Assembly (NCBI GenBank): GCA_029288895.1
Contig: JARIGK010000002.1
Location: 94,986-158,985, forward strand
Source: Candidatus Adlerbacteria bacterium
Lineage (GTDB): Bacteria > Patescibacteriota > Minisyncoccia > Phycocordibacterales > SBAW01
DNA length: 64,000 bases
Direction: 5' to 3'
Positions 6,710 through 22,332 of this stretch are shown here, in pieces. The stretch's first letter is position 1; each line of letters opens with the position of its first letter. The notes under the pieces are model-generated. The model was not told the origin of the DNA and did not search any database. It saw nothing but the letters and a program-made list of their open reading frames with translations. The translations under genes were made by a program, and so were the position numbers.

Positions 6710-7131
6710 TTTTTAGTTGTGCGCCAGTGCCACACTGCGAGGCCAAACAATACAAGTGTCGTGAGCGCTGAAATCGCGCAGTACTGGCACAGTGCGCCAA
6801 TCACAAAGTATTGGAAAAGTTCGAAGAAAATAGAAAACGCGAGACCGATAGTTGCATACGCCATAAGACCTATGCGGAGACCTTTTGAATATGGGTCGAT
6901 AGCGAGCAACACCGCGAGCGCCAACATATACACGTAATACACGAGGCCAATGTGTGCCAATGTCACACCAAATACGCTCGAATATGGGCTGTTAAGCACG
7001 CGCTCGCATCCGTGGAGCACCAAACACCCAGGCACGACGCCATGCAATTTTTCGTACACCAAGTACAAGGTGTCACCGATGCCAATAAATGTTGTGGCAA
7101 TGAGCCAGTATGGCGTGAGAATTACTTTCAT
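6706..7131 (-). CDS. Vitamin K epoxide reductase (VKOR) family membrane protein
   Basis: 141 aa, 4 TM helices, loop cysteine pair (GCLVLHGCE) and CQYC motif in the last TM helix, consistent with VKOR disulfide-generating enzymes. Confidence 0.55.
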   Translation of the reverse strand: MKVILTPYWLIATTFIGIGDTLYLVYEKLHGVVPGCLVLHGCERVLNSPYSSVFGVTLAHIGLVYYVYMLALAVLLAIDPYSKGLRIGLMAYATIGLAFSIFFELFQYFVIGALCQYCAISALTTLVLFGLAVWHWRTTKN

Positions 7132-7670
7132 TGTGTAAATGTAACACTGGAAAGGAGGTTCTTGAAGTCGGTGCGGATGGCGTCATCGGCCTTCATCCAG
7201 GATGCGGCAAAGATATAGACCGCGCCGCTGTGTTCGACAGCAACCGCATCAGACTCGTACAAGCCACTATAGCGATATGCGAGTGCAGGCTGGCCTGCCA
7301 CTGTTGTTTGCGTAATCTTTTTGTCGGGCGAGAGATAGAAGTTGGTAATAGATGAATCACGCACCCATTGCTCGAGCGTTGTTGTTGCTGGGCGTGCGAC
7401 TTTGATGATTGAGATAGCGGTCGGACCCTTGCTCATGTCGGGCACCGTGCTTGATGCATCAATGAGGGTTAATATCTGCACCGGCATGCCATTAAAACTA
7501 TCGTGGCGAGCGTTCAGGTCGTACGTTGGCGGGTACGTAAACGCCAACCCTATTTCATTTGAGCGGTACGAGCCTTCCGTTATTGCAGAGTGGCTGCCCA
7601 TGCGCGATGCGTACCATACGCCCGCACCTGCTACGAGCAGAAGTATCGCAATTACAGAAAGGCGTTTCAT
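7128..7670 (-). CDS. Hypothetical secreted protein
   Basis: Start trimmed to MKRLSVIAILLLVAGAGVWYAS (signal/anchor); no recognised family. Confidence 0.5.
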   Translation of the reverse strand: MKRLSVIAILLLVAGAGVWYASRMGSHSAITEGSYRSNEIGLAFTYPPTYDLNARHDSFNGMPVQILTLIDASSTVPDMSKGPTAISIIKVARPATTTLEQWVRDSSITNFYLSPDKKITQTTVAGQPALAYRYSGLYESDAVAVEHSGAVYIFAASWMKADDAIRTDFKNLLSSVTFTQ

Positions 7671-7671
7671 A

Positions 7672-8217
7672 CTATTTAAGTAAGTCTTTAAACTTCGTTT
7701 CGACTTTCTCGACCTTGGGCGCAATCACAAGCTGGCAGTACCCCGCGCCTTTATTTCGCTCGTAATAATTTTTGTGATAGTCCTCCGCTGGGAAGTAGTT
7801 TTCGAACGGGCGGACGTCTGTGACGATGGGTTTTACAAACCCTCCTTTATTTAAGACTGATATGTAGTGCTCGGCTTTTTCTTTTTGGCGAGGAGTTGTG
7901 TAGAAGATAGCAGAATGATATTGCGGGCCAACATCATTCCCTTGCCTGTTTGGAGTTGTTGGGTCATGGCTCGCAAAAAATACGCGAAGTAACTCTTCGA
8001 ATGCAATTTCGTCTGGATTAAATTCGATTTTGATGACTTCAATATGGCCCGTGGTGCCGGTGCAGACCTGTTCGTAGGTTGGATGCATCACATGCCCGCC
8101 TGCGTAGCCAGGCTCGACCGCTTTCACTCCCTTTATCATTAAAAAAACTGCTTCGGTGCACCAAAAGCATCCTCCGCCAAACGCCACTGTCTCTATAATG
8201 TTATCCACATCTTGCAT
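7672..8217 (-). CDS. msrA: Peptide methionine sulfoxide reductase MsrA
   Basis: GGGCFWC active-site motif and full-length MsrA similarity (181 aa). Confidence 0.9.
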   Translation of the reverse strand: MQDVDNIIETVAFGGGCFWCTEAVFLMIKGVKAVEPGYAGGHVMHPTYEQVCTGTTGHIEVIKIEFNPDEIAFEELLRVFFASHDPTTPNRQGNDVGPQYHSAIFYTTPRQKEKAEHYISVLNKGGFVKPIVTDVRPFENYFPAEDYHKNYYERNKGAGYCQLVIAPKVEKVETKFKDLLK

Positions 8218-8374: not shown

Positions 8375-8408
8375 GCCGACACCTCGTGTGTCGGCTTTTT
8401 CTTTTATT
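8375..8408 (+). terminator. Intrinsic terminator (plus-strand polarity)
   Basis: gccgacac ctcgt gtgtcggc hairpin followed by TTTTTCTTTTATTT; minus-strand flank lacks a U-run. Confidence 0.5.
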
Positions 8409-9570
8409 TCTCTTTTTTCTCGTCTTTCACTTTCAAGTATTTTTTGTTTTTAAGTTTGTCGGGCAAGTACGATTCTTTATCGTAGAGTTTGTAGCCCTTG
8501 TGATAGTCCAAATCGCGCATCAACTTTGTTGGCGCATTACGGATTCGTAGCGGCACAGGCAAGTTTCCTAGTTTCTGCACATCAGCCAGCGCTTCAAAAT
8601 ACGCATCATAACTTTCCCTACTCTTTTTGCATCGCGCTAAATATGCCGCCCCGTGCGCCAAGTTTATCTGTGCTTCGGGGTAGCCAATTTTTTCGCACGC
8701 CTCAAACACAGCATTTGCCACCACAAGCGCCGTCGGTACTGCCAAGCCAATATCTTCGCTGGCAAAAATCACCATGCGCCGCGCAATAAACAGCGGGTCC
8801 TCGCCCGCATCAACCATCCGTGCCAAATAGTAGAGCGCCGCATCCGCCTGCCCTGCGCGCATACTTTTAATAAAGGCAGAAATGGTGTTGTAGTGCTCCT
8901 CGCCTTTTTTGTCGTAGCGCAGATGCTTGCTCTGTACAGTTTCTTTGAGCGTCTCGAGCGTTATTTTGCCGTACAACCCTTGTGCGTTTTCGAGCACGCC
9001 AAGCGCCTGGCGCGCATCACCGCCCGCCATTTGCACGAGCCATTCCTTCGCATCTTTTGGAACTTTAAGTTTTGTGCGCTTGATGATCTTTTCCATGTCA
9101 TCTTCGTTGAGCTCGTTCAACACAAAGACACGGCAGCGCGAAAGAAGTGCCGAGATTACCTCAAACGAGGGGTTCTCAGTTGTCGCACCAATAAGCGTGA
9201 TGTCGCCGCGCTCGACAAACGGCAGCAAAAAATCCTGCTGCGCTTTATTAAAGCGATGTATTTCGTCGATAAAAAGAATCTTCGGCTTGCCGGAGAAATT
9301 AATCTTTCCGCTCGCAAGCACTTGCTTGATATCATCTTTGCCCGAGTCGACGGCCGAGAGCTCGAAGAATTCTGCATCAAGCGCATTGGCATAGATACGT
9401 GCAAGCGTTGTCTTACCCGAGCCCGGCGGGCCCCACAATATAAACGAGAAGAGGTGCTTCCCTTCTATTGCCTCGCGCAACGGCTTGCCTTTGCCCACCA
9501 AATGTTCTTGGCCAAAGAAATCACCAAGCGACTGCGGACGGATTTTGGATGCCAAAGGCTCAGGACTCAT
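8404..9570 (-). CDS. rarA: Replication-associated recombination protein A (AAA+ ATPase)
   Basis: GPPGSGKTTLA Walker A, DEIHRFNK Walker B/sensor, MgsA C-terminal domain; start trimmed to MSPEPLASK at 9570. Confidence 0.85.
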   Translation of the reverse strand: MSPEPLASKIRPQSLGDFFGQEHLVGKGKPLREAIEGKHLFSFILWGPPGSGKTTLARIYANALDAEFFELSAVDSGKDDIKQVLASGKINFSGKPKILFIDEIHRFNKAQQDFLLPFVERGDITLIGATTENPSFEVISALLSRCRVFVLNELNEDDMEKIIKRTKLKVPKDAKEWLVQMAGGDARQALGVLENAQGLYGKITLETLKETVQSKHLRYDKKGEEHYNTISAFIKSMRAGQADAALYYLARMVDAGEDPLFIARRMVIFASEDIGLAVPTALVVANAVFEACEKIGYPEAQINLAHGAAYLARCKKSRESYDAYFEALADVQKLGNLPVPLRIRNAPTKLMRDLDYHKGYKLYDKESYLPDKLKNKKYLKVKDEKKEK

Positions 9571-9650
9571 ACCAGCCAGTATACAAAATCGCCCCACATG
9601 CGCCTTTCTGTATACTTCATGCGTATACACTACAAACAAGGGGTATTTTC

Positions 9651-10223
9651 ATGGATGAAAGAACGGATGAAGAATTGCTTGCCGCAAGTGTCGAGGGCGA
9701 GAATAGTGCATTCGACAAGCTGGTGGAACGCCACGCGGCAGGAGTCTATTCGTTTGTGCTGCGCCTTGTTGGTGATTCGCGGGAGGCAGAAGACATCACT
9801 CAAGACATATTTCTTAAAGTCTGGCAGAGCCGAAAAAAATACGACATCCATGCAAGCCGATTTAAGACATGGATGTTTCGTATTGCACGCAACACAACCA
9901 TCGACTATCTCCGCAAAAAGAAGTACGCAGTCTTTTCTGAGTTTGACGATGCGGAAGGCACTAATTCGATAACCGACACTTTAGCGGACAGCGAGCTCTT
10001 GCCGGACGAAGCATTCGCCGCACACGAAACCGCAGAAGAGGTCCGCACAGCCCTTCTTACTCTCTCACCCAAATATCGCGAGGTAATCGCACTCCACTAC
10101 ACAAATCATATGACACTCGAAGATATATCACGCGTACTACAGGAGTCGCACAATACGGTTAAAAGTAGGCATCGCCGGGCGCTCCTGGCCCTCCGCGCTG
10201 CCCTGCTGCCCACACGCACCTAA
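9651..10223 (+). CDS. ECF-type RNA polymerase sigma factor (sigma-70 family)
   Basis: Region 2 (AFDKLVERHAAGVYSFVLRLVGDSREAEDITQDIFLKVW) and region 4 HTH (TLEDISRVLQESHNTVKSRHRRAL); ATG at 9651. Confidence 0.85.
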   Translation: MDERTDEELLAASVEGENSAFDKLVERHAAGVYSFVLRLVGDSREAEDITQDIFLKVWQSRKKYDIHASRFKTWMFRIARNTTIDYLRKKKYAVFSEFDDAEGTNSITDTLADSELLPDEAFAAHETAEEVRTALLTLSPKYREVIALHYTNHMTLEDISRVLQESHNTVKSRHRRALLALRAALLPTRT

Positions 10224-10246
10224 CGAGACTATATATACGTATATCT

Positions 10247-10648
10247 ATGGACATGAACTTGAATAACCCACTTTCTCTGGCACTCCGCGAAGAGCAGGCC
10301 CCTCAGGGCTTGGTTCGTGCTATTTGCGCACGCATCGCTCTGGCCCGCCAGCAAAACGCGCGCCGTAAAACATTGCTGCTCGGTATTGCATCTATTGTCT
10401 TTGGCATTTCACTAGTGCCCGCGTTCCAGTACGCAGCTGGCGAGCTCTACGCATCGGGCTTTTATGAATATATGTCGCTGATCTTCTCCGACAGCGGTTT
10501 GGTGTTGTCTGTCTGGCGCCAATTTGCCTTCTCGCTTATTGAATCTATTCCCTCCCTTGCCATCCTTGTATTACTCGCGCTGTGCGGCGCGCTAGGATGG
10601 TCGCTGCGCCGTGCATTTATTAACGCACGCACAGCATTTTCGTTCTAA
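10247..10648 (+). CDS. Putative anti-sigma factor (membrane protein)
   Basis: 133-aa ORF immediately downstream of the ECF sigma gene with a cytoplasmic N-terminus and two TM helices; assignment by context only. Confidence 0.4.
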   Translation: MDMNLNNPLSLALREEQAPQGLVRAICARIALARQQNARRKTLLLGIASIVFGISLVPAFQYAAGELYASGFYEYMSLIFSDSGLVLSVWRQFAFSLIESIPSLAILVLLALCGALGWSLRRAFINARTAFSF

Positions 10649-10660
10649 ATCATTGTATAT

Positions 10661-11116
10661 ATGGACACCCGCGAAAAGGTTCGTTTTGGCTGGTTACGAT
10701 GGGCACTTCTTGCACTCGGCGCATTGCTCATCTTTTTTTTGATCTTTGACGCAGGTGTCGCGGTTGGCATGCGCTACTCGATGGGGATGCGCGGCCCAGG
10801 CGGGCATGTCGGTATGCCTGCACAACAATTTGGGTTTGGCGGCTTTGGTATCGCCGTACCGCATGGATATATCCCAGAAGGCCATGGTGCAGTAGGGACT
10901 ATCCAAACCATAGACGCCACTACTATTACATTACAAACACGCGAAGGAGGCACCCAGGTTGTTGCCATTAATGCAAACACACATATTCAGAGCGCAACCA
11001 CAACCGGCACTCTGAAAGACCTCCGGCCTGGACAGACAATTGTTGTACTTGGCGACCCACATGAAGCAACTTCAAGCCAGCAATTAACTGCTGCGTTTAT
11101 TCGCATACTCCGATAA
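10661..11116 (+). CDS. Small membrane-anchored protein, paralog 1 (Gly-rich linker plus beta-rich C-terminal domain; DUF5666-like)
   Basis: N-terminal TM, Gly-rich segment, C-terminal ...GTIQTIDATTITLQTREGGTQVVAINANTHIQ...; clearly homologous to the ORF at 14911..15318. Confidence 0.5.
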   Translation: MDTREKVRFGWLRWALLALGALLIFFLIFDAGVAVGMRYSMGMRGPGGHVGMPAQQFGFGGFGIAVPHGYIPEGHGAVGTIQTIDATTITLQTREGGTQVVAINANTHIQSATTTGTLKDLRPGQTIVVLGDPHEATSSQQLTAAFIRILR

Positions 11117-11121
11117 CAAGC

Positions 11122-12930
11122 ATGAGCATCAAAATGACTGCGCTTTCATATTGGATACCCGTTAAAAAGTATATTGTTGCGCACAAAGCTATCAGCGGTG
11201 TTATTGCTGTTGCCCTGCTTGGTGGCATATGGTGGGCGTACAACACAGCCACTGCAGCACCTGCACAAACGCGCTACATCCTTGGGACCGTTGCCTCGAG
11301 CACAACGATTATCTCGACCGTGTCCGCATCAGGCCAGGTTGCAGCTTCCAATAGCATCGACATCAAACCGCAAGTAAGCGGGCAAATTACCTGGATTGGC
11401 GTTAAAGCTGGCCAGACTGTGTACCAAGGGCAAGCGCTTGCGTCGATAGACAGTACGGATGCGCGGCAGACACTACAGGAAGCAGAGAGCAACCTTGCAA
11501 CGGACAAACTCAACTTCCAAAAATCACAAGCGCAAGCACCCATTGATTATCAAAACGACCAGACAACGCTCGCAAACGCACAGACGGATTTACAGGATTC
11601 GTATAACGATATGTTTAACGACCTCACGGGAGTCTACCTCGACTTGCCTGCCGTGATGACGACGTCGCAAACCGTGCTCTACGGATATGATTTCGACAAT
11701 AAAAAAGTGCAGTGGAATGTTGATGCCTTGATGAATATTTTTAACCCAACATACGAAGACACAACGAGCGTAAAATCCTTCCAAACCACTGCAGTCAGCA
11801 ACTATAACGCTGCGAAAACTGCGTACCAGAATGCATTGTCTGCGTACCAGCTCTTTACCCGCACATCAGACAATGCGTCGATGGATGCAATGCTCAGCCA
11901 GTCCATTACGATGACAACGGCAGTGGCGCAAGCGCTCCAGAGCGAACTCAACTATCTGGGCAGCGCGTCTGACTTAGCTAACAAAAACAATATTTCCCTT
12001 CCTGCAAATTTCTCCAGCATCCAAAGCAGCGCACGCACCAACCTCGCAACTGCAAACACTGACCTGTCAAAGTTGTTGGTCGATAAAAAGACACTCACGA
12101 GCAATAAACAAGCAATTGTGAACGCCCAACACACTATTTCTCTTGACCAAGTCGGCAACACGTCCGACGGCAGCAACCCCATTAGCCTCCAGGTGTCAGC
12201 AAACAACATAGCGAAAGAAGAACAAGATATCGCAAACCAAAAAGCTGACTTGGCTAAATACACTATCGTCGCACCATTTAACGGCACGCTCTCTGCAGTA
12301 GATGCAAAAGTTGGCGACACAGCAGGCTCGAGCGCTGTTGCAACCATCATCACCCATTCGCAAATTGCAAATTTGAGCCTGAACGAAGTCGATGCTGCAA
12401 AAATTAAACTTGGCCAAAAAGCGACACTTACCTTCGATGCAATTGACGGCCTAACACTGACGGGCACCATCGCAGAAATTGACAGCGTTGGCACCGTGAG
12501 CCAAGGCGTCGTCTCCTACCAAGTACAAATTAGCTTTGACACCCAGGACCCGCGCATAAAACCTGGCATGACGATTAATGCATCAATCCAAACAGGCGTA
12601 GTGCAGGATGCCCTTTCGGTTCCATCAAGCGCGGTCAAAACGCTGAATGGTGAAAGTTACGTACAGATGTTTACCCCGCCGCTTACAGACACCGGCGGCA
12701 CAACAGGCGTTACATCAGACACGCCGCCGCAAATGGTGCCAGTGACGATAGGCATTTCTGATGACACCAACATCCAGATACTTTCAGGACTCGAAGCAGG
12801 CCAGCAGATTGTTGTAGGCACTCGCTCAAGCACAAAAACAACAACATCAGCTGCACGCCCTACAACAGGTGGCGCCGGGGGCAATCGAGGATTTGGCGGC
12901 GGAGGCGGCGGTATCCGCATCGGAGGATAA
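11122..12930 (+). CDS. Efflux membrane fusion protein (HlyD/MacA family periplasmic adaptor)
   Basis: N-terminal TM, biotinyl-lipoyl-like IDIKPQVSGQITWIGVKAGQTVYQGQALASID, long coiled-coil, beta-barrel domain ...YTIVAPFNGTLSAVDAKVGD...; Gly-rich C-terminus. Confidence 0.8.
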   Translation: MSIKMTALSYWIPVKKYIVAHKAISGVIAVALLGGIWWAYNTATAAPAQTRYILGTVASSTTIISTVSASGQVAASNSIDIKPQVSGQITWIGVKAGQTVYQGQALASIDSTDARQTLQEAESNLATDKLNFQKSQAQAPIDYQNDQTTLANAQTDLQDSYNDMFNDLTGVYLDLPAVMTTSQTVLYGYDFDNKKVQWNVDALMNIFNPTYEDTTSVKSFQTTAVSNYNAAKTAYQNALSAYQLFTRTSDNASMDAMLSQSITMTTAVAQALQSELNYLGSASDLANKNNISLPANFSSIQSSARTNLATANTDLSKLLVDKKTLTSNKQAIVNAQHTISLDQVGNTSDGSNPISLQVSANNIAKEEQDIANQKADLAKYTIVAPFNGTLSAVDAKVGDTAGSSAVATIITHSQIANLSLNEVDAAKIKLGQKATLTFDAIDGLTLTGTIAEIDSVGTVSQGVVSYQVQISFDTQDPRIKPGMTINASIQTGVVQDALSVPSSAVKTLNGESYVQMFTPPLTDTGGTTGVTSDTPPQMVPVTIGISDDTNIQILSGLEAGQQIVVGTRSSTKTTTSAARPTTGGAGGNRGFGGGGGGIRIGG

Positions 12931-13637
12931 TGATTGAAGTTACAGACATAACAAAAACATACGGCAACGGCGACACTACTTTTCAAGCATTGAAGGGCGT
13001 TTCGTTTACCATCGAAGATGGCGAATTTGTGGCAATCATGGGGCCATCTGGCTCGGGCAAATCAACAATGATGCATATTTTAGGCTGCCTCGACATACCA
13101 ACTACGGGCACATACTTCCTCGATGGGAAAGATGTCTCAACGATGGACGACGAGCAATTGGCTGACATCCGAAAAGATAAAGTCGGCTTCGTCTTTCAGG
13201 CATTTAACCTGCTCCCCCGCACGACGGTGCTCCGCAATGTTGTGCTGCCGCTTGTGTACGCTGGCGTGGGCATAGATGAACGAGAGAAGCGTGCAAAACA
13301 TGCACTTGTGTCTGCTGGTTTGACCGAAAGCCACTTCTTACACAAAAGCAATGAGCTCTCTGGCGGACAAATTCAGCGTGTAGCAATTGCACGCGCATTG
13401 GTAAACGAACCAACACTTATTTTGGCCGACGAACCGACAGGCAATCTAGACACTAAAACCGGCGAGGTCGTCCTTGGCACATTCCAAAAACTAAACGAAG
13501 AACACGGCCGCACTATCGTGCTCATTACCCACGAGCCAGATGTTGCCGAACACGCAAAACGCATCATAACGCTGCGCGACGGAACTATAGTGTCCGACAC
13601 CACATCACACACGCGCCGTCGCGCACATCACATATGA
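12930..13637 (+). CDS. ABC transporter ATP-binding protein (MacB/LolD type)
   Basis: Walker A GPSGSGKST, signature LSGGQIQRVAIARAL, Walker B ILADEPTGNLD. Confidence 0.9.
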   Translation: MIEVTDITKTYGNGDTTFQALKGVSFTIEDGEFVAIMGPSGSGKSTMMHILGCLDIPTTGTYFLDGKDVSTMDDEQLADIRKDKVGFVFQAFNLLPRTTVLRNVVLPLVYAGVGIDEREKRAKHALVSAGLTESHFLHKSNELSGGQIQRVAIARALVNEPTLILADEPTGNLDTKTGEVVLGTFQKLNEEHGRTIVLITHEPDVAEHAKRIITLRDGTIVSDTTSHTRRRAHHI

Positions 13638-14884
13638 CACTGAACGACACATTACAAGAAACATTTACTGCCCTCTCGGCAAACAAAGTCCGCTCAGGGC
13701 TCACAGTACTTGGCATCGTCATTGGCATCGGCTCTGTCATTGCCATGGTGTCCGTTGGACAAGGTGCGGCGTCTGGCATCCAGTCGTCTATACAGTCGCT
13801 TGGCTCAAACCTGTTGCAAGTAACGCCAGGGGCCGCACGCACCGCAGGCGGTTTTGGCGTCTCGGGCGGCCGCGGAACCTCTTCGACATTAAAACAGGAT
13901 GACGCTAACGCTATTGCGTCACAGGTGCAATATGTTGCAGGCGTTGCAAGCGAAGTGTCGAGCCGCCAGCAAATTACGGCAAAAGGCACAAACACAAACA
14001 CCTCTGTTATTGGCGTCACCAGCGCATACCCAGAAATTCGCAACGTCTCTATAGATCAAGGCAGTTTTATTAGCGACGATCAAAATAACTCACTGGCCAA
14101 AGTCGCCGTACTCGGGCCCACCGCCGCAGGCGACCTGTTTGGCACCGACGACACCACAGCAGATGGCTTGCCTAACGGCATTGTCGGCCAAACTATCCGC
14201 ATCAAAGGGATGGAATTTAAAGTTATTGGCATCACTGCAGCAAAAGGTTCGAGCGGCTTCTCCAATCAAGACGACACTGTCTATATACCAGCAAAAAGCG
14301 CACAGCGATTTCTCACAGGCAACGATTCCGTCTCATCAATCGATATCCAAGCGTCGAGCGCAGACACTATGGCAACAGTACAAGACGATGTGACGAACCT
14401 TCTTCTTGCCCTCCATGGCATCAGCGACCCGACAAAAGCAGATTTTAGCGTTTTAAACCAAAACGATTTACTTTCTGCAGTGTCCAATGTGTCACAAACA
14501 CTCACCATTCTCTTGGCGTCCATTGCAGGCATCTCACTTATTGTTGGAGGCATCGGCATTATGAACATGATGCTCACCACTGTGACAGAGCGCACGCGCG
14601 AAATCGGCCTACGCAAAGCTATTGGCGCAAAGAAAGCAGATATCAGCCGCCAATTTCTCATCGAAGCCACGGTCCTTACCCTCATCGGTGGCACACTTGG
14701 TGTCGTGCTTGGCGGTGGCGTTGCCTTAGCCATAAACGCATTGGGTCTGATTACAACCAGCATATCCGTATCGTCGGTCGTGCTGGCGTTTGGTGTTTCG
14801 GCAGCGATTGGCATCCTCTTTGGGTGGTACCCGGCGCGGCGTGCAGCCTCGCTCAACCCTATCGAGGCGTTGCGATATGAATAA
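13634..14884 (+). CDS. ABC transporter permease (FtsX/MacB family)
   Basis: N-terminal TM, large periplasmic domain, C-terminal FtsX 4-TM domain (...IMNMMLTTVTERTREIGLRKAIGAKK...). Confidence 0.9.
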   Translation: MTLNDTLQETFTALSANKVRSGLTVLGIVIGIGSVIAMVSVGQGAASGIQSSIQSLGSNLLQVTPGAARTAGGFGVSGGRGTSSTLKQDDANAIASQVQYVAGVASEVSSRQQITAKGTNTNTSVIGVTSAYPEIRNVSIDQGSFISDDQNNSLAKVAVLGPTAAGDLFGTDDTTADGLPNGIVGQTIRIKGMEFKVIGITAAKGSSGFSNQDDTVYIPAKSAQRFLTGNDSVSSIDIQASSADTMATVQDDVTNLLLALHGISDPTKADFSVLNQNDLLSAVSNVSQTLTILLASIAGISLIVGGIGIMNMMLTTVTERTREIGLRKAIGAKKADISRQFLIEATVLTLIGGTLGVVLGGGVALAINALGLITTSISVSSVVLAFGVSAAIGILFGWYPARRAASLNPIEALRYE

Positions 14885-14910
14885 TTAGTAATGATAAGAG
14901 AATAGATAGT

Positions 14911-15318
14911 ATGAACACACAGAGTAAAATTATTAGTGCGGTTGTAGTACTTATATTGATGGGCGGTTCATTCTGGGGCGGCATAACGTATGCAAAAGCG
15001 CACCCGACGCGCGGGCAGTTTAATACTCAGTTTGGAGGCGCAGCGGGTGGCCGCGCAGGTGGATTTGGCCGCGGCGGCATGGGTGGCGCGTCTGTGGGAC
15101 AAGTAGTCTCCGCTGACAAAACCACCATGACTATTAAACTCGCCAGCGGCTCGACGCAGATTGTACTCTTTAGTACGTCAACTCAAATTATGAAAAGTGT
15201 CGCGGGTACTGCATCCGATCTTTCTGCCGGAACAAATGTTATAATCATGGGGCAACCGAACAGTGACGGCAGCCTTACGGCCCAGTCTGTTCAAATTAGG
15301 CCAGCAGTAAATAGATAA
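14911..15318 (+). CDS. Small membrane-anchored protein, paralog 2 (DUF5666-like)
   Basis: Same architecture as 10661..11116: TM, Gly-rich linker (GGAAGGRAGGFGRGGMGG), C-terminal ...TTMTIKLASGSTQIVLFSTSTQI... domain. Confidence 0.5.
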   Translation: MNTQSKIISAVVVLILMGGSFWGGITYAKAHPTRGQFNTQFGGAAGGRAGGFGRGGMGGASVGQVVSADKTTMTIKLASGSTQIVLFSTSTQIMKSVAGTASDLSAGTNVIIMGQPNSDGSLTAQSVQIRPAVNR

Positions 15319-15327
15319 TTAAAACGT

Positions 15328-15831
15328 ATGAATAAAAAGTTTCTTGTAGGAGGAATCATCGTTGTACTTTTAGGAGGCTACGCGCTCTGGGCGGCATCGC
15401 GCTCGAGCACCGCTACGCCCGCAACGACAAATCAAAACGGTCAGACGTCAGCGTCATCAGAGACAACCAACCCTAACGCGGGCGGCACTGCGCAAGATGG
15501 CGGCGTGGGCGACTCATCATCACCTGCCGACAACAATACGGCGCAATACAAAGATGGAACATATACCGGCAAAGTAGGGAGTGCCGCGCCGTATGGTAAC
15601 GTCCAAGTAAAGGCAACTATTTCGGGCGGCAAACTCACCAAAGTAGATGTGCTTACCAAGCCAAGCGGCCCAGGCTATACCGACCAATTGTCAGCACAGA
15701 CATTCCCTCTGCTGGTACAAGAAGCCATTAAGGTCCAAGGTTCGGGTGTACACATTGTGAGCGGCGCAACGCAGGACAGCGAAGGCTTCCAGCAGTCGCT
15801 CGCATCGGCGCTCGCACAGGCTTCGATCTAG
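15328..15831 (+). CDS. FMN-binding domain protein, membrane-anchored, with ApbE flavinylation motif
   Basis: N-in TM anchor MNKKFLVGGIIVVLLGGYALWAA, FMN_bind-like domain (YKDGTYTGK...VQVKATISGGKLTKVDVL), SGAT flavinylation motif in GSGVHIVSGATQDSEGF. Confidence 0.7.
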   Translation: MNKKFLVGGIIVVLLGGYALWAASRSSTATPATTNQNGQTSASSETTNPNAGGTAQDGGVGDSSSPADNNTAQYKDGTYTGKVGSAAPYGNVQVKATISGGKLTKVDVLTKPSGPGYTDQLSAQTFPLLVQEAIKVQGSGVHIVSGATQDSEGFQQSLASALAQASI

Positions 15832-15835
15832 CACT

Positions 15836-16573
15836 ATGAAAGAGACGCGTGCCATCATGGGCATGCCCATCACTGTCGAAGTGGTGGATGAACATGCCTC
15901 CCAACATATGCTTGAGGAGGTATTTTCATATTTCACCCGCATCGACGAACAATTCAGCACCTACAAAGAGACAAGCGAGATCTCAAAACTAAATAGAAAA
16001 GAAATTGCTGAATTAAGCGATGAAATGCATGAGGTATTGATGTTGGCAGAAAAAACAAAACAAGAAACAAAAGGCTACTTTAATATCAAAAAACTAGACG
16101 GAACTCTAGACCCCTCAGGGATAGTAAAAGGCTGGGCGATTAATAACGCGGCCGATTTGCTGATGCATTGCGGGGCAACTAACTTTTACATTGAAGCAGG
16201 TGGCGATATACAAACACACGGCACAGCAGCCGACGGCGCACAGTGGAGCGTTGGTATAAAAAACCCCTTTAATAAAAACGAAATAGTAAAAGTTATCTAT
16301 CCGCGCGGCCGCGGCGTTGCAACGTCGGGGAGCTATGAGCGCGGCAGCCATATCTACAACCCCCACTCACCCACCGACATATTGTCCGACATAATAAGCA
16401 TTACCGTCGTTGGCCCCAACGTTTTAGAAGCCGACCGTTTCGCCACTGCAGCATTTGCCATGGGCCGCGCTGGAGTCCAGTTCATTGAACAACTGGCCGG
16501 TTTTGAGGCATACTCAATAGATAAAGATGGCATCGCAACCATGACCAGTAATTTCTTTACACTCACTGTATGA
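15836..16573 (+). CDS. apbE: FAD:protein FMN transferase (ApbE family), short form without obvious signal peptide
   Basis: GMPITVEV, DPSGIVKGWA, GGDI, WSVGIKNP, VATSGSYER motifs typical of ApbE; 245 aa. Confidence 0.85.
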   Translation: MKETRAIMGMPITVEVVDEHASQHMLEEVFSYFTRIDEQFSTYKETSEISKLNRKEIAELSDEMHEVLMLAEKTKQETKGYFNIKKLDGTLDPSGIVKGWAINNAADLLMHCGATNFYIEAGGDIQTHGTAADGAQWSVGIKNPFNKNEIVKVIYPRGRGVATSGSYERGSHIYNPHSPTDILSDIISITVVGPNVLEADRFATAAFAMGRAGVQFIEQLAGFEAYSIDKDGIATMTSNFFTLTV

Positions 16574-18057
16574 ATATAAACATCCCCTTCGTCGACCCCC
16601 TGCTCAACCGCATCACGATGTATCGCGTCGTGCTCTACCATTTGTGCATTCTGTGGCTTGTCGCACTCGCCTATACATTCTTTGGCGTCCTGTCGTTTAC
16701 ACCGCTTGCGCTTATATTCTCGACCGTCGTTATCCTCGGCGTCTGCTGGATAGTCAACGAGCTGTGCGCATGGGCCTGGAATGTGACGCCAAACGTCGAG
16801 TCGGTTTATATCACGGGCTTTATCATCGCGCTTATCATGACGCCAGTCGCAATAGACAACATACATGGCGCTCTTATACTCGCCGCCGCATCTGCCGCAG
16901 CAATGGCATCAAAATACCTGCTTGCGTGGAAGCGCCAACATATCTTTAACCCTGCAGCGTTTGGCGTTGCCTTTACGGGCATTTTGCTTAGCGGTTACGC
17001 CAGCTGGTGGGTTGGAGGCACGCTACCTCTTCTGCCATTTGTGGCAATTGGCGGCTTGCTTATTGTGCGTAAAATACAGCGCTTTGATTTGTTTTGGACC
17101 TACGCTGCAGTCGCTGCCGCGGGCGTATGCATCACGTTTCTGCCGCTCTCGCCGTGGGAGACGCTCAGTGATTTTGCCATTCATTCATCAGCACTCTTTT
17201 TGGCAACAGTAATGCTCACAGAGCCGCTTACGTCGCCTCCGACGCGCCTCAATAGAATTATCTACGCGGCCATTGTCGGCTTTGTCTTTATTCCGCACCT
17301 GCACATTGGAACGTTCTACACATCGCCAGAACTCGCACTGCTCGTTGGTAACATCTTTGCATTTGCAGTGATGCCAAAAAGCCGCCGCATACTGACGCTT
17401 GTCAAAAGCACGCAAATTGCCGAAGGCATCTACGACTTTACCTTCCGCCCCGACGCGCCGCTCGCCTTCCACGCGGGGCAATATATGGAGTGGACACTCA
17501 AACACTCGCCGTCCGACAGCCGCGGTAACCGCCGGTACTTCACCATCGCCTCTGCCCCCACAGAACAAGAAATCCACTTAGGTATCAAAACCTACGACCC
17601 AGCAAGTACGTTTAAAAAAGCGCTCGTCGGGATGAAGACCGGCGACACTATTTCTGTGGGCCAGCTTTCGGGTGAGTTTACTCTTCCGCACAATGAAAAA
17701 GAGAAACTCTGCTTTATCGCAGGCGGCATCGGCATCACACCCTTCCGCGCGATGGTGCAGCATATGCTCGACACTGGGAGCCAGCGCGATGCGATACTCC
17801 TCTACTCAACAAAAACTCCTGCCGAAGTTGCCTATAAAGAAGTATTTGACGAGGCAGCGCAGAAACTCGCTTTCCGCGCGCACTACACCAACATGCTCAA
17901 CAAAGAGAGCCTTATGCGCGAAGTGCCAGACTACAAAGAACGGATGTTCTACATCTCGGGCCCGCGTGGCATGGTTGTGGCATTCGAACACACCCTCAAA
18001 TCCTTGGGCGTCCCATCGTCCAAAATAAAAATCGACTTCTTCCCCGGGTTTGCCTAA
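16570..18057 (+). CDS. Fusion protein: RnfD/NqrB-like polytopic membrane domain plus C-terminal FNR-like FAD/NAD(P)-binding oxidoreductase domain
   Basis: N-terminal about 260 aa with about 8 TM helices and HIFNPAAFG motif; C-terminal RRYFTIAS (RxYS FAD motif), GGIGITP NAD(P) loop, MFYISGPRGMV. Confidence 0.65.
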   Translation: MNINIPFVDPLLNRITMYRVVLYHLCILWLVALAYTFFGVLSFTPLALIFSTVVILGVCWIVNELCAWAWNVTPNVESVYITGFIIALIMTPVAIDNIHGALILAAASAAAMASKYLLAWKRQHIFNPAAFGVAFTGILLSGYASWWVGGTLPLLPFVAIGGLLIVRKIQRFDLFWTYAAVAAAGVCITFLPLSPWETLSDFAIHSSALFLATVMLTEPLTSPPTRLNRIIYAAIVGFVFIPHLHIGTFYTSPELALLVGNIFAFAVMPKSRRILTLVKSTQIAEGIYDFTFRPDAPLAFHAGQYMEWTLKHSPSDSRGNRRYFTIASAPTEQEIHLGIKTYDPASTFKKALVGMKTGDTISVGQLSGEFTLPHNEKEKLCFIAGGIGITPFRAMVQHMLDTGSQRDAILLYSTKTPAEVAYKEVFDEAAQKLAFRAHYTNMLNKESLMREVPDYKERMFYISGPRGMVVAFEHTLKSLGVPSSKIKIDFFPGFA

Positions 18058-18689
18058 AACTCACGAGTCTCGCCGTCTGGGATAGTGACGTATTCGGTGT
18101 TTGGGACAAACATCTTGAGCGCATTGCCAACGAAGCCGCGGAAGAACGGCATAATCATGCCATCGTGCACGCCAAAAGCTTTTGTGGCGTTTACTTGTTT
18201 AGCAAAATCTATTGCATCGCCCATCTTCATCCACGGGCCAGAGACTGGAAGCGCCAACACCTCGACTGGTTTGCCGCACACATGGAAATTGTCTCCTGGG
18301 AAATAAAATTTCTCGGCGACCATATATGCCGTATTTTCACACTGCCCCATCTCGCCATAAATGGGGGCGTGGTCCTTCCCAAACCCTTCGATCGTGATTC
18401 CATTTATTTCCGCACGCTGTCCGTCGCCCACACATGTAGATGCAATTCTTTCTTTTTCTAACAACGCACCTACTGCACTATTAGTAACAACCGTCGCACC
18501 TGGGTTATTTTCGAGCATCTGTTTGACCGATTCAACGTGGAAGTGATCTTGATGTTCGTGTGTTATCAAAATGATATTTATTTCGTGCAGTTCATTCTGC
18601 GCTGTCGTAAAACTACCTGGGTCTGTCACAATCTTTGTGCCATTGATATCCAGCAGCAAACAGCAATGCCCGAATTTAGTGATGTTCAT
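18054..18689 (-). CDS. MBL-fold metallo-hydrolase
   Basis: HEHQDH zinc-binding motif and further His/Asp ligands; start trimmed from the long ORF to MNITKFGHCCLLLDINGTKIV at 18689. Confidence 0.75.
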   Translation of the reverse strand: MNITKFGHCCLLLDINGTKIVTDPGSFTTAQNELHEINIILITHEHQDHFHVESVKQMLENNPGATVVTNSAVGALLEKERIASTCVGDGQRAEINGITIEGFGKDHAPIYGEMGQCENTAYMVAEKFYFPGDNFHVCGKPVEVLALPVSGPWMKMGDAIDFAKQVNATKAFGVHDGMIMPFFRGFVGNALKMFVPNTEYVTIPDGETREF

Positions 18690-18821
18690 AGACCTAGTAT
18701 AGTCGATTGTATTGAGAATTTCCTGAAGTACTGTTGTATTAATAGTAACTGGACAATATAAATTTGGTATTGTAATGCACTTTTCGGTGACATGTTCGTC
18801 ATCTCTTGTAAGAGGTTTGGA

Positions 18822-19154
18822 ATGAAAAAGATGCTGGTTTGCGCTTTTGCGCTGACGCTGACTCCCTGGTTTTCTGCTTCCGCCCAGCAGAACGAGCTCT
18901 ACATGGATCGAATTCTGAAGTTGGGCGACGCCTACTGCCCCAAGTCGGTGTCGCCCATTCCGTGCTCGACGGAGTTCATGAAGATGGCCACCCTGGCCGC
19001 CCATATTGACTTGGCGATGGCGACCTCCAAAGCCTACGCCGCAATCGGGGACCAGAAAGCCGTCGAGGAGCTGCTCCCCGAGCTGAAGAAGAATAGCTCT
19101 GAACTGGAAGTGATGGTGAAGGGATTCGACCAGAAATTCCCCCTGAAGCAGTGA
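18822..19154 (+). CDS. Small secreted protein with atypical high GC3 codon usage
   Basis: Signal peptide MKKMLVCAFALTLTPWFSASA; CTG/GCC/GAG-rich codons unlike neighbours; followed by intrinsic terminator. Confidence 0.5.
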   Translation: MKKMLVCAFALTLTPWFSASAQQNELYMDRILKLGDAYCPKSVSPIPCSTEFMKMATLAAHIDLAMATSKAYAAIGDQKAVEELLPELKKNSSELEVMVKGFDQKFPLKQ

Positions 19155-19178
19155 TCTACTTCGGCGTCACACAACTCA

Positions 19179-19215
19179 CCCCGCAGTTCGCTGCGGGGTT
19201 TTCTTTTTATTTTTT
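19179..19215 (+). terminator. Rho-independent terminator
   Basis: ccccgcag ttcg ctgcgggg hairpin followed by TTTTCTTTTTATTTTTT. Confidence 0.8.
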
Positions 19216-20868
19216 GGGCAAGTCCAAATGGACAAAGGCATCACTAAAGGTGGTGCCTACTTTTTTGCCTGGGTTGAAGATGTTGTGCGGGTCGAAGATT
19301 TTTTTAGTTTGGAGGAAGAGCGCATACATCTCGGGGCCGAACATTTTTTTGACGTACGGCGTGCGGATAAAGCCGTCGTTATGCTCCCCTGTTATCGAGC
19401 CATGGTAGGCAACGACCAAGTCATACACTTTGTGCGAAAGTTCATCAATCGTTTTTGCAGTTGTAGGGTCCTTGGGGTTTACCAAGGGGATGATATGGAA
19501 ATTGCCGTCGCCCACGTGCCCCGCGACCGTGTACATCATCGATTTTTCGTACGGTTTTAAAATCGCTTCAAGCTTTGGCAAAAACTCGGGCAGTGTTTTG
19601 GGCGGCACGACAAAGTCGTCGATAAACGGCGCCGTGCGTTTGCCGCGCACTTTTTTGCGCAGCAAGTTAAAGCTCTCGCGGCGAATGGTCCAGTATTTGC
19701 GGCTCGCTGCTTCATTTTCTGCCACGCGCGTACTGACCTTTGGGTTATTCTTCTTAATCTCTTCTGCCAACTCGTGTGCTTTTTTGTCCGCTTCTTCTTG
19801 CGTGTCGGCGCGGAACTCGATCATAAGCACCAGTTTTGGAATGCCGCCTGTAAGGAGCATCCATATCTCTGGCAAAAACGAAAGTCCGAGCGATATAATC
19901 CCGGCCTTCATCTGTGTGGCAAACTCAGGGAAATATTTTACGGCCAACTTAAAGGTATTGTCGTCGTATGATTCAAAACTATCAGGTTGTTTCTCTAATA
20001 CTTCTGGCACTATTTTGCCTAACTCTGAAAGCGAGTCTAAAAATGCAACAGTCATCGCCGAATACGGCTTTGGAGTCACTAGTGTAAATTTTATTTTGGT
20101 CGTGATACCAAGCGTCCCCTGCGCACCCACCATCAGCCGCGCTAAGTTGAGCGAATTTACGCCGTCGCCTATATCCCACAGTGCGTAACCCGACGAGTTT
20201 TTCTCCACCTTTGGTTTGTTCTTTTCTATTATTTCTTTATGCAGCGACACAAGGCGCGCCATGCCGCGATAGATGTTACCCTCAAAATCCTGCTGTCCCA
20301 ATTTTTGCTTCAGCGCCTCGCCTTCCACATTTTTGAGCGTATAGGCCTGCCCGTCAGCCAGGACAACTTCGAGCTCTTCGGCGTAGCGTGCAGTTTTGCC
20401 GTATTTGAGGTTCTTCTCGCCGCCCGAGTTATTGCCCACCATACCGCCCACAGTGTTTATCTCGCGCGACGCGGTATAGCTTGGTAATTCTAAATTCTTC
20501 TTTTTTGTTTCTTTGTCAAAATCGCGGAAGTACATACCCGGCTGCACAACAGCGTAGTCACTTCCAAGTTCCAAAAGCTTCGTAAAGTGCGCTGTCATAT
20601 CCACAATAATGGATGTGTTGAGCGGTCCGCCCGACATATCGGTACCGGCAGAGCGCGCCGTTAAGGAAATGATGCTGTCCGGGTTCTTTTCTTTTTCTTT
20701 GTTGGCATAGCGCACCAGCACGCCGATGTCTGTCGCATCTTTTGGGTGTACAACCGCTTGCGGTGTCACCGCAAACAAGCTCGCATCACGAGAAAATTTC
20801 TCTAACACCTGCGGCGCATCTTCCACTTCCCCGCGCACAAGTTTGCGCAGGTCACTGCCAATAGACAT
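19207..20868 (-). CDS. FAD-linked oxidase (FAD_binding_4 plus FAD-oxidase C-terminal domain; GlcD/D-lactate dehydrogenase-like)
   Basis: 553 aa; FAD-binding PCMH domain (ARSAGTDMSGGPL, VQPGMYFRDFDKE) and C-terminal HVGDGNFH...GSITGEHNDG motif. Confidence 0.85.
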   Translation of the reverse strand: MSIGSDLRKLVRGEVEDAPQVLEKFSRDASLFAVTPQAVVHPKDATDIGVLVRYANKEKEKNPDSIISLTARSAGTDMSGGPLNTSIIVDMTAHFTKLLELGSDYAVVQPGMYFRDFDKETKKKNLELPSYTASREINTVGGMVGNNSGGEKNLKYGKTARYAEELEVVLADGQAYTLKNVEGEALKQKLGQQDFEGNIYRGMARLVSLHKEIIEKNKPKVEKNSSGYALWDIGDGVNSLNLARLMVGAQGTLGITTKIKFTLVTPKPYSAMTVAFLDSLSELGKIVPEVLEKQPDSFESYDDNTFKLAVKYFPEFATQMKAGIISLGLSFLPEIWMLLTGGIPKLVLMIEFRADTQEEADKKAHELAEEIKKNNPKVSTRVAENEAASRKYWTIRRESFNLLRKKVRGKRTAPFIDDFVVPPKTLPEFLPKLEAILKPYEKSMMYTVAGHVGDGNFHIIPLVNPKDPTTAKTIDELSHKVYDLVVAYHGSITGEHNDGFIRTPYVKKMFGPEMYALFLQTKKIFDPHNIFNPGKKVGTTFSDAFVHLDLPKK

Positions 20869-20883
20869 GCCTCTAGTATATCG

Positions 20884-22332
20884 CTACTTCAGCACGTTCC
20901 AGATGTTTGGATCTTCAGAGCCGTCGAGTTTAAAGACTGCGACGCCGCGGACGCCAAGTCTCTTTGCCAATGCAACTTTGTCTGCAATTGCCTGCGCGTC
21001 GCTCCACCACACGATGTTAAACGGCGGCTGCATGGATGTTGCTAATGCCGACTGCGAGTACACATCAGACGGAGGTGCGTTCGTATTCCCGCCGCCCACA
21101 ACCGCACCCGGCGCGCTTGCCTGACTGGAAAGCGCCTGTGTTGCTGATGTTGATTTATACAGGAAGGAGAGTTCGCCTGCGCTATTGCGCGACGGCGTGA
21201 CACCAAGCAAGGACGCTAACTGCGTTGCGTATGCTGGGTTAAATGGCCACTGCACTTGGTACGAATAGCCCGAGCCATTTGGGGTCACAGCATACTCGTA
21301 GCCATAGGTTGGCACACCAATAAGTATCTTCTTTTTGTCGATGGTTTGTGCTGCCAAATTAACAACATTTTCAACCCATGCTGGGTCTGCCACTGGCGCG
21401 TACGGTGCTGCGCGCGCAGCATTAAGCAACGCATCGATGCGGCCCTGGTCGTAGGTCATAATCTCGACACGATCGCAGTATTTGTTTATTGCAACGTAGT
21501 CGTTGGCATACTCTGTTGCATCGTCAGGGGGCGTCACGTTGTAGCCATACCGCTCGGTAATTGGCATGCGTGCCTCGATCGAGCAGTACACCCATTTGTT
21601 ACCCATGCGCTGATAGAGCCCTTTCAAGAACGTAGAAAAATAATCTTTTGTTTCTGCATGTTTTGCTTCGAAATCGATATCGATGCCGTCGTAGTTATTA
21701 TCTTTAACGAGTTTTGCAATTGCATCCTCAAGCGCCACACGTTTCGTTGCGTCAGACAGCACGGCGTGTTCCGTATCGCCATTGCCCCACATGATTGTCG
21801 GAACAACGCGCACCTTCTGTGCCTTTGCTGCTGCGATAAATGACACCCATGGCTCCTGATTCATCCCCGCGGCATCGTTTAAGGTACCGTCGCTCTTCAT
21901 CGTGTACGTAAAGGGGTTGATTGTAGCCATCTGCGAGAGGTGCGGCTGCACATCCTGGGTACCTTCTGTCTCGTGCCAGTACGGGATCCACCCGCTGTAT
22001 TCGAGCGCACCTTTATACGAAGCAGTCACCGACGTGGGTGCCGCTGCGCCAAGCAAGGCCGCCTGCGTTGACGCACCCACAACACCATAGCTTGCGCCCG
22101 AGCATGCAATGCCGCTCGCGCACTGGAATTTCTTTACTGCGGCCAATGTCATTGAGCCAAACTTACCCGTATTGTTCCCTGCTGCTAAATATCCTTTTGC
22201 AATAAGTTGATTTTGGAGCGAAACAACATCACTGCCAGACATACCAGAGGTAAGCGTACGCGTTGCCGCATACACCGGAGAAACTACAAGAAAACCTAGG
22301 GCGACCAGTGCCCCGAGCAGGAACTTATTCAT
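20884..22332 (-). CDS. Secreted glycoside hydrolase family 18 protein with N-terminal peptidoglycan-binding domain
   Basis: Signal peptide, PG_binding_1-like SGSDVVSLQNQLIAKGYL...VKKFQ, GH18 catalytic DGIDIDFE motif. Confidence 0.8.
   Translation of the reverse strand: MNKFLLGALVALGFLVVSPVYAATRTLTSGMSGSDVVSLQNQLIAKGYLAAGNNTGKFGSMTLAAVKKFQCASGIACSGASYGVVGASTQAALLGAAAPTSVTASYKGALEYSGWIPYWHETEGTQDVQPHLSQMATINPFTYTMKSDGTLNDAAGMNQEPWVSFIAAAKAQKVRVVPTIMWGNGDTEHAVLSDATKRVALEDAIAKLVKDNNYDGIDIDFEAKHAETKDYFSTFLKGLYQRMGNKWVYCSIEARMPITERYGYNVTPPDDATEYANDYVAINKYCDRVEIMTYDQGRIDALLNAARAAPYAPVADPAWVENVVNLAAQTIDKKKILIGVPTYGYEYAVTPNGSGYSYQVQWPFNPAYATQLASLLGVTPSRNSAGELSFLYKSTSATQALSSQASAPGAVVGGGNTNAPPSDVYSQSALATSMQPPFNIVWWSDAQAIADKVALAKRLGVRGVAVFKLDGSEDPNIWNVLK

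Follow-up and report, generated by a model that had tools for sequence, protein, structure and literature searches.

What do three adjacent genes at positions 15328 to 18057 of a 64,000-nucleotide stretch of Candidatus Adlerbacteria DNA (contig JARIGK010000002.1 of assembly GCA_029288895.1; the whole stretch is called the window here) do for their host? To our knowledge, Patescibacteria are generally described as lacking respiratory chains, and these genes have the makings of a device that carries electrons out of the cell. A first-pass annotation, made from the letters of the sequence, had described three adjacent same-strand genes forming a compact flavinylation module. Its coordinates are exact and all three genes lie on the plus strand. 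The module consists of the following parts (FMN, flavin mononucleotide; FAD, flavin adenine dinucleotide; FNR, ferredoxin-NADP reductase):

15328..15831, plus strand: membrane-anchored FMN_bind protein, 167 aa
15836..16573, plus strand: ApbE-family FAD:protein FMN transferase, 245 aa
16570..18057, plus strand: RnfD-FNR fusion protein, 495 aa
16570..17373, plus strand: RnfD/NqrB-fold polytopic membrane domain of the fusion, residues 1 to ~268, with 10 predicted transmembrane helices
17374..18057, plus strand: FNR-type FAD/NAD(P)H-binding module of the fusion, predicted to be cytoplasmic, residues ~269-495, with RRYFTIAS and GGIGITPF

The reading that we favor, with a probability of roughly 70%, is that the fusion and the FMN_bind protein form a two-subunit NQR/RNF-like transmembrane electron-export complex that is encoded together with its own maturation enzyme. 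The module is a member of a published, computationally defined class of NQR/RNF-like, flavinylation-associated systems and is not new in kind; within that class the locus is a typical, ordinary member.

The genes are tightly packed: the FMN_bind and apbE reading frames are separated by a 4-nt gap, and those of apbE and the fusion share 4 nt (ATGA). Searches with hidden Markov models agree with the domains that had been assigned by eye. Pfam finds PF04205 (FMN_bind) in the 167-aa protein (27.8 bits, cut-off 22, residues 90-162), PF02424 (ApbE) in the 245-aa protein (149.3 bits, cut-off 25.6, E=2e-43), and both PF03116 (NQR2_RnfD_RnfE; 27.7 bits, exactly the cut-off, residues 158-264) and PF00175 (NAD_binding_1; 41.9 bits, residues 382-445) in the 495-aa protein. 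For the C-terminal half of the fusion, NCBIfam gives partial sub-threshold matches only, all to FNR-type modules (flavohemoprotein, PaaE, Fre, NqrF). The motifs quoted at the outset are all present: SGAT in the FMN_bind protein and, in the fusion, HIFNPAAFG at residues 124-132, RRYFTIAS at 321-328 and GGIGITP at 385-391.

A profile built from the first 268 residues of 16 family members and searched against the Protein Data Bank (PDB) bears on the fold of the membrane half. It reaches one PDB family at E<0.001, the RnfD subunit of the Azotobacter Rnf complex (8ahx_D, E=7e-4), in an alignment that covers the last helices and a conserved TEPLTSP (TDPVTSP in RnfD). Restricting the profile to the N-terminal part was needed to reach RnfD: phmmer with the single fusion sequence returned FNR-type PDB matches only, and FNR-type proteins took up the matches listed for the full-length family profile. 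A precomputed PF03116 match is also present in most of the 120 fusion homologues listed. The RnfD/NqrB assignment therefore holds despite the marginal Pfam score. Of the 349 RnfD residues, 243 align with the membrane domain, and about 100 RnfD residues, the flavinylated loop included, are missing from the fusion; the corresponding loop is a short xxSASWWVG. A [ST]G[AS][TS] motif is absent from the RnfD-like domain in all 60 proteins compared (the window protein and 59 relatives). As far as these sequences tell, the flavinylation site of RnfD has been lost from the RnfD-like domain, a point that the first-pass annotation did not make and that agrees with Huang et al. (2024).

The topology of the fusion follows from the distribution of positive charge. 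Mean Lys plus Arg counts were taken over the loops of 44 family members, with helix boundaries from a predicted model, and they alternate cleanly. The segments assigned to the inside have means of 1.27 (N-terminus), 0.41 (L2, the weaker inside loop), 1.91 (L4), 2.30 (L6), 2.09 (L8) and 2.43 (L10); those assigned to the outside have 0.07 (L1), 0.02 (L3), 0.05 (L5), 0.02 (L7) and 0.02 (L9). We infer a protein with ten transmembrane helices, both termini inside and the FNR module in the cytoplasm. Loop L5 follows the NPAAFG helix, which we take to be the position of the flavinylated Thr in RnfD/NqrB, and it would face outward, on the opposite side from the FNR module.

The FMN_bind protein begins with MNKK and a hydrophobic segment (residues 5-23, Kyte-Doolittle (KD) 2.17) compatible with either a signal anchor or a cleavable signal peptide. 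A low-complexity linker of about 60 residues, rich in Ser, Thr, Asn and Gly, comes next and leads into the compact FMN_bind domain; such a long linker behind an anchor would be typical of an exposed tether. The flavinylation motif reads HIVSGAT, with SGAT at residues 145-148, 19 residues short of the C-terminus, and Thr148 as the predicted target. Counts over relatives refer to the best 80 of at least 477 loci (one per GTDB species), labeled L001-L080. A hydrophobic N-terminal anchor is present in all 69 FMN_bind partners found there, and a motif of the type D-x-x-[ST]-G-[AS]-[ST] in 62 of them, nearly always about 19 residues from the C-terminus. Because the motif occurs in 62/69 partners and in none of the 60 RnfD-like domains, the FMN_bind protein is the only evident ApbE target in the cluster. 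Lys and Arg are more numerous on the N-terminal than on the C-terminal side of the anchor in 52 relatives, equal in 16 and fewer in one, and lipobox-like sequences occur in three (for example, ‘LAGC’ in the actinobacterial L078). Because of this charge bias and these lipobox-like sequences, the domain is very probably extracytoplasmic, with the anchor oriented N-in/C-out by the positive-inside rule. The charge statistics of anchors and fusion loops thus bear out the topology that had been assumed, with FNR inside and the SGAT domain outside. A family profile of the FMN_bind protein matches the flavinylated domain 8p2a_A of a multi-flavinylated protein (E=7e-24), its closest solved relative; NqrC and RnfG are not reached by this profile at the sequence level. 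In one locus titled Candidatus Acidiferrales (L035, 5967-6967), two tandem FMN_bind genes, each with DI[VI]SGAT, lie directly upstream of the fusion, and no apbE adjoins the fusion there.

How might such a complex work? The FAD of the fused FNR module would oxidize NAD(P)H in the cytoplasm, and electrons would cross the membrane through the RnfD/NqrB-fold domain, presumably by way of at least one non-covalent flavin in the riboflavin/FMN pockets known from RnfD and NqrB. They would then reach the FMN that ApbE is predicted to place on Thr148 (in SGAT) of the tethered FMN_bind protein at the outer face, and the FMN_bind protein would hand them to an extracytoplasmic acceptor. In this scheme we infer the cofactors, the direction of flow, the covalent flavin and the acceptor from the domains, fold, gene order, motifs, predicted topology and loss of the RnfD site. 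For an organism of the Patescibacteria type the complex could be a sink for NAD(P)H or supply reductant to the outside, and an exporter this compact is a plausible means of regenerating NAD(P)+ or of reducing metals or other targets on the surface of the cell or its host.

This architecture has been named and described before, which the first-pass annotation did not note. Méheust et al. (2021; eLife 10:e66878, PMC8238504) define an NQR/RNF-like system as a PF03116-PF00175 fusion encoded near apbE or FMN_bind, and they and Huang et al. (2024; mSystems 9:e00375-24, PMC11334425) report the class mainly from Actinobacteria and the candidate phyla radiation (CPR). The window protein has the same architecture, PF03116 at the N-terminus and PF00175 at the C-terminus of one protein, with ApbE immediately upstream (4-nt overlap) and FMN_bind next, inside the limit of five genes used for the class. 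One-way electron flow from NAD(P)H to the outside, which had been suggested independently for this locus, is proposed for the architecture in both papers (PMC8238504; PMC11334425). Huang et al. modeled a Ktedonobacter pair with AlphaFold-multimer: they describe an RnfD-like subunit that has lost the flavinylated Thr, as the window protein has too, and an FMN_bind flavinylation site beside the flavin pocket of that subunit (PMC11334425).

The class appears to be larger than its description suggests. Méheust et al. give 127 clusters, having kept only those in which a signal peptide or lipobox was predicted (PMC8238504), as against about 300 clusters at 50% identity, thousands at 90% and at least 477 GTDB species here. 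That filter probably removed many CPR clusters, which would combine an uncleaved anchor with an ApbE that has no leader; this could be why only 127 were counted and why flavinylation was reported to be under-represented in the CPR. Relatives of the fusion number more than 7,800 among 90%-identity clusters, a total that may include matches to the FNR domain only. The best 120 are all about 480-525 aa long, and those with names come mostly from Patescibacteria (Paceibacterota, Adlerbacteria, Kaiserbacteria); the closest, labeled Candidatus Paceibacterota and Adlerbacteria, are 70-76% identical. The membrane domain alone gives 301 clusters (50% identity) at E<=1e-30 and 733 at E<=1e-10. Most of the representatives listed are 480-530 aa long, the shorter ones resembling fragments, so that the fusion is this domain's usual form.

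By record title, the best 80 loci divide into 35 labeled Patescibacteria, 11 Alphaproteobacteria (Mesorhizobium, Kaistia and others), eight Chloroflexota, eight Gammaproteobacteria or Pseudomonadales, eight unlabeled (“bacterium”), four Spirochaetota, four Actinomycetota and two from other groups. Some titles may be wrong: in L007, L028, L045, L047, L058, L062, L068 and L077, titled ‘uncultured Gammaproteobacteria’ or ‘Pseudomonadales’, the modules and their flanks resemble Saccharibacteria/Patescibacteria loci. FMN_bind, ApbE and fusion adjoin one another co-directionally in this order in 61 of the 80 loci, in Patescibacteria, Chloroflexota, Rhizobiales, Spirochaetota and Actinomycetota, and the flanks of the module differ among the loci.

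Several known systems share parts of this design. With respect to the Rnf complex (RnfABCDGE), the module corresponds to the RnfC-RnfD-RnfG branch, with a fused FNR-type FAD module in place of RnfC and its FMN and Fe-S clusters. It has no RnfA, RnfE or RnfB, so electrons have no way back to ferredoxin and ion coupling is not evident; its RnfD-like domain is smaller by about 100 residues and is not predicted to be flavinylated itself, and its FMN_bind domain has more sequence similarity to stand-alone FMN_bind domains (8p2a) than to RnfG. Set against Na+-NQR (NqrA-F), the module lacks NqrA, NqrD, NqrE, the 2Fe-2S domain of NqrF and the quinone reduction loop, and its NqrB-like domain would carry no covalent FMN. 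In Nqr and Rnf the RnfD/NqrB subunit participates in the coupled transfer of ions and electrons, and the membrane domain does have this fold; one could therefore see in the module a remnant or variant of an ion-pumping Rnf/Nqr that works with RnfA/E/B/C- or NqrD/E-type subunits encoded elsewhere. This is very improbable. Canonical subunits (RnfA/E/B/C, NqrD/E/A/F) are absent from the genes at 3.2-24 kb of the window and from the recurrent neighbors in the 80 loci, and none of them adjoins the module, be it in the window or in one of these loci. The membrane domain has an NAD(P)H module of its own fused to it, occurring almost only as a fusion of about 500 aa, and it is without the roughly 100 RnfD residues described above.

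The complex that we favor also invites comparison with two other ways of moving electrons outward. Enzymes of the NOX/ferric-reductase (FRD) family such as SpNOX, and the MsrQ-like and PepSY-like PF00175 fusions, are built on a six-helix bundle with two haems, in contrast to the flavin-type RnfD/NqrB fold of the module. They act on O2 or Fe(III) directly, whereas the immediate acceptor in the module is predicted to be a covalently flavinylated protein. The logic would be the same as in NOX/FRE enzymes, with flavins used for haems. In the flavin-based extracellular electron transfer (EET) of Listeria (Ndh2, EetA/B, PplA, FmnB), an ApbE-family enzyme likewise flavinylates a surface-tethered FMN_bind protein, which passes electrons on to acceptors outside, and the host of the module is, like Listeria, likely to be a monoderm. 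Electrons there cross the membrane by Ndh2, quinone and EetA/B, however, and not by an RnfD-FNR fusion. FmnB of Listeria is a lipoprotein that is exported and receives its flavin from a dedicated transporter (PMC9973259); the ApbE of the module, by contrast, is leaderless.

That ApbE is the most puzzling part of the locus. Its start, MKETRAIMGMPIT, lies directly in the conserved core, with no hydrophobic segment before it. The enzyme is nonetheless predicted to be sound: it aligns to E. coli ApbE (4xgw/2o18, E ~4e-19) and to Vibrio and Salmonella ApbE structures. Its stretches GIVKGWA, EAGGDI, ATSGSY, SHIYNP and EADRFAT match the E. coli protein, and of these SHIYNP and EADRFAT correspond to SHVIDP and EADAWDT in solved ApbEs. 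It is about 55 residues shorter than E. coli ApbE, in the N-terminal half, and looks functional, given how well the catalytic region aligns. The short length (245 aa) and missing signal peptide had already been flagged as unexpected, and the anomaly extends well beyond this genome: a leader is absent in 65/65 usable cluster-linked ApbE relatives, even when the longest possible open reading frame of each is taken. These longest frames start in the core (MKxTRxxMGMPIT) or have a short, non-hydrophobic extension overlapping the FMN_bind gene. The leaderless form spans at least five phyla (for example, L078 6123-6995 and L017 6267-7010) and includes cases in which the FMN_bind partner carries a lipobox-like sequence. 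The short ApbE (~238-250 aa) belongs to a very large, mostly patescibacterial subfamily with thousands of members. A wrongly called start, a frameshift or fusion with FMN_bind could hide a leader; this was considered and rejected: the two genes are in different frames, a stop lies 25 codons upstream in the ApbE frame with no ATG, GTG or TTG between it and position 15836, and the 65 relatives have no hydrophobic leader either.

Characterized ApbEs that modify extracytoplasmic targets are exported lipoproteins, the Salmonella enzyme requires a periplasmic location to function, and cytoplasmic ApbEs are known only with cytoplasmic targets (PMC12052999). Might the whole system then face the cytoplasm? 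The FMN_bind protein would be flavinylated inside, and the complex would reduce a cytoplasmic or membrane-embedded substrate, with no export of electrons. The leaderless ApbEs would fit such a system, the 64-kb window holds no second apbE or FMN_bind gene, and there is a precedent in the Klebsiella ApbE that matures a soluble fumarate reductase (PMC12052999). Yet the anchors of the FMN_bind proteins have more Lys and Arg on the N-terminal side in 52 relatives out of 69 and fewer in one, three relatives have lipobox-like sequences, the equivalent of the periplasmic flavinylation loop of RnfD/NqrB is on the far side of the membrane from the FNR module, the Ser/Thr/Asn/Gly-rich linker suggests an exposed tether, and the published multimer model has the FMN_bind subunit outside. 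Taken together, a system that faces the cytoplasm is unlikely.

If the FMN_bind domain is outside, where is it flavinylated? Because an ApbE export signal is absent across the family, flavinylation on the cytoplasmic side is preferred: it would most likely take place before or during export of the C-terminal motif, though this is the least certain step of the scheme. Export of a pre-flavinylated FMN_bind protein by the Tat pathway was rejected, since the anchors begin MKK or MKR and an RR motif is found in only 1 of 69. A bolder proposal is an undescribed maturation route in which SGAT receives its flavin in the cytoplasm, where there is FAD, and the FMN-bearing chain is exported without Tat, within a module that is a far more common NAD(P)H-reoxidizing electron exporter of the respiratory-chain-poor CPR than the literature suggests. 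We hold this as a tentative idea, with the odds somewhat against it; were it true, FAD would not have to be supplied outside the cell in Patescibacteria and in other lineages that are mostly monoderm. The searched passages of Méheust et al. (2021) and Huang et al. (2024) make no mention of the leaderless ApbE. Its occurrence across the family poses a concrete, testable question about the place and time of flavinylation.

There are multiple points that weigh against the electron-export complex. First, the absence of a leader in the 65 ApbE relatives sits badly with the exported lipoproteins that serve outside targets elsewhere (PMC12052999): if the inferred topology is not mistaken, maturation must be unusual. 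Second, a cofactor in the membrane domain is needed to bridge the membrane, and sequence cannot reveal one. Third, the PF03116 score is no higher than the threshold, and in sequence the FMN_bind domain resembles NqrC or RnfG less than it does stand-alone or multi-flavin FMN_bind domains (8p2a). Fourth, no candidate acceptor gene adjoins the module in the window. Finally, no biochemical test of the NQR/RNF-like class was found in the literature searched, nor a paper that names both ApbE and Patescibacteria. What is known of the class comes from bioinformatics and AlphaFold models alone, and any member that can be expressed would offer a route to its first biochemistry. The interest that remains lies in this gap in the literature searched, in the leaderless ApbE and in the likely under-counting of the CPR.

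The neighbors of the module in relatives offer some clues to the acceptor. An Nramp gene lies directly downstream of the fusion in three Patescibacteria loci (L026 7824-9071, L063 8521-9807 and L064 8509-9795; the L064 copy scores 284 bits in Pfam), VIT1 is near the module in four (L016, L023, L034 and L057; three Rhizobiales and one Chloroflexia), and P-type cation ATPases are near it in five; Méheust et al. also report VIT1 in 6 of their 127 clusters (PMC8238504). The Nramp and VIT1 neighbors fit an outward-facing reductase and support a metal-reductase role in some lineages. With architecture and topology unchanged, the job here could likewise be assimilatory, reducing Fe(III) or another metal outside the cell and feeding an importer. 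For the window this is rather unlikely, if somewhat less so than a system facing the cytoplasm: the module has no metal-transporter gene within about 8 kb, its neighbors here encoding DUF5666 proteins, a MacB/HlyD-type exporter and an extracytoplasmic function (ECF) sigma factor, and only about 10% of the loci examined have a metal transporter with the module.

Other flanks point elsewhere. Where the fusion has no FMN_bind or ApbE neighbor, it is flanked by membrane-anchored cupredoxin-like proteins in three loci (L041 9778-10218, L055 7002-7490 and L072 4618-5486) and by a DsbA-like thioredoxin-fold protein and VKOR in a fourth (L050 8524-9710). The Pfam check covered the related L026 cupredoxin; the calls in L041, L055, L072 and L050 come from clustering or from reading the sequences. 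These flanks hint at partners other than a flavinylated protein. The pattern as a whole fits an outward-facing reductase whose acceptor differs between lineages, metal reduction being the best-supported case. Two-component systems adjoin the module in about 20 loci.

In the window, the module forms the 3′ end of a run of ten same-strand genes, 9468-18057 on the plus strand, in which neighbors overlap or are separated by at most 26 nt. The run and the genes that face it are:

9468..15318, plus strand: seven genes upstream of the module, with gaps of at most 26 nt and in this order, as called with Pfam: ECF sigma factor, putative anti-sigma factor (no Pfam match), DUF5666 protein, HlyD-like adaptor, MacB-type ATPase, MacB-type permease, DUF5666 protein
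15328..18057, plus strand: FMN_bind, ApbE and RnfD-FNR, as above
18054-22332, minus strand: three genes convergent on the module

The ten genes probably form one transcription unit, and regulation of this unit by the predicted envelope-stress-type ECF sigma factor is plausible. Rfam shows no riboswitch or other family close to the locus, and a scan of the locus for promoters and terminators gave nothing useful. The order HlyD-ABC-ABC-DUF5666 followed by the module recurs in L012 and L039; about six other Patescibacteria loci have it in a looser or a convergent arrangement (convergent in L013 and L021). A functional tie between the exporter and DUF5666 genes and the flavin module would be conjectural.

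Further upstream on the minus strand (6706-8217) are, in a row, a stand-alone VKOR (141 aa), a membrane-anchored protein (198 aa, no Pfam match) and a leaderless MsrA (181 aa). The row lies directly upstream of a gene for an MgsA-like AAA+ ATPase (8404-9639, minus strand) and the ECF sigma gene. A link between the VKOR/MsrA row and the module was considered and set aside: MsrA has no export signal, and the row is on the opposite strand and outside the operon. On the other side, the minus-strand genes at 18054-22332 encode a metallo-beta-lactamase-fold protein, whose gene overlaps the stop of the fusion by 4 nt at its 3′ end, a GlcD-like FAD-linked oxidase (553 aa) and a GH18 glycosyl hydrolase that has a peptidoglycan-binding domain. 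Within about 7 kb of the module, a relative of the oxidase recurs in L048 and one of the hydrolase in L047.

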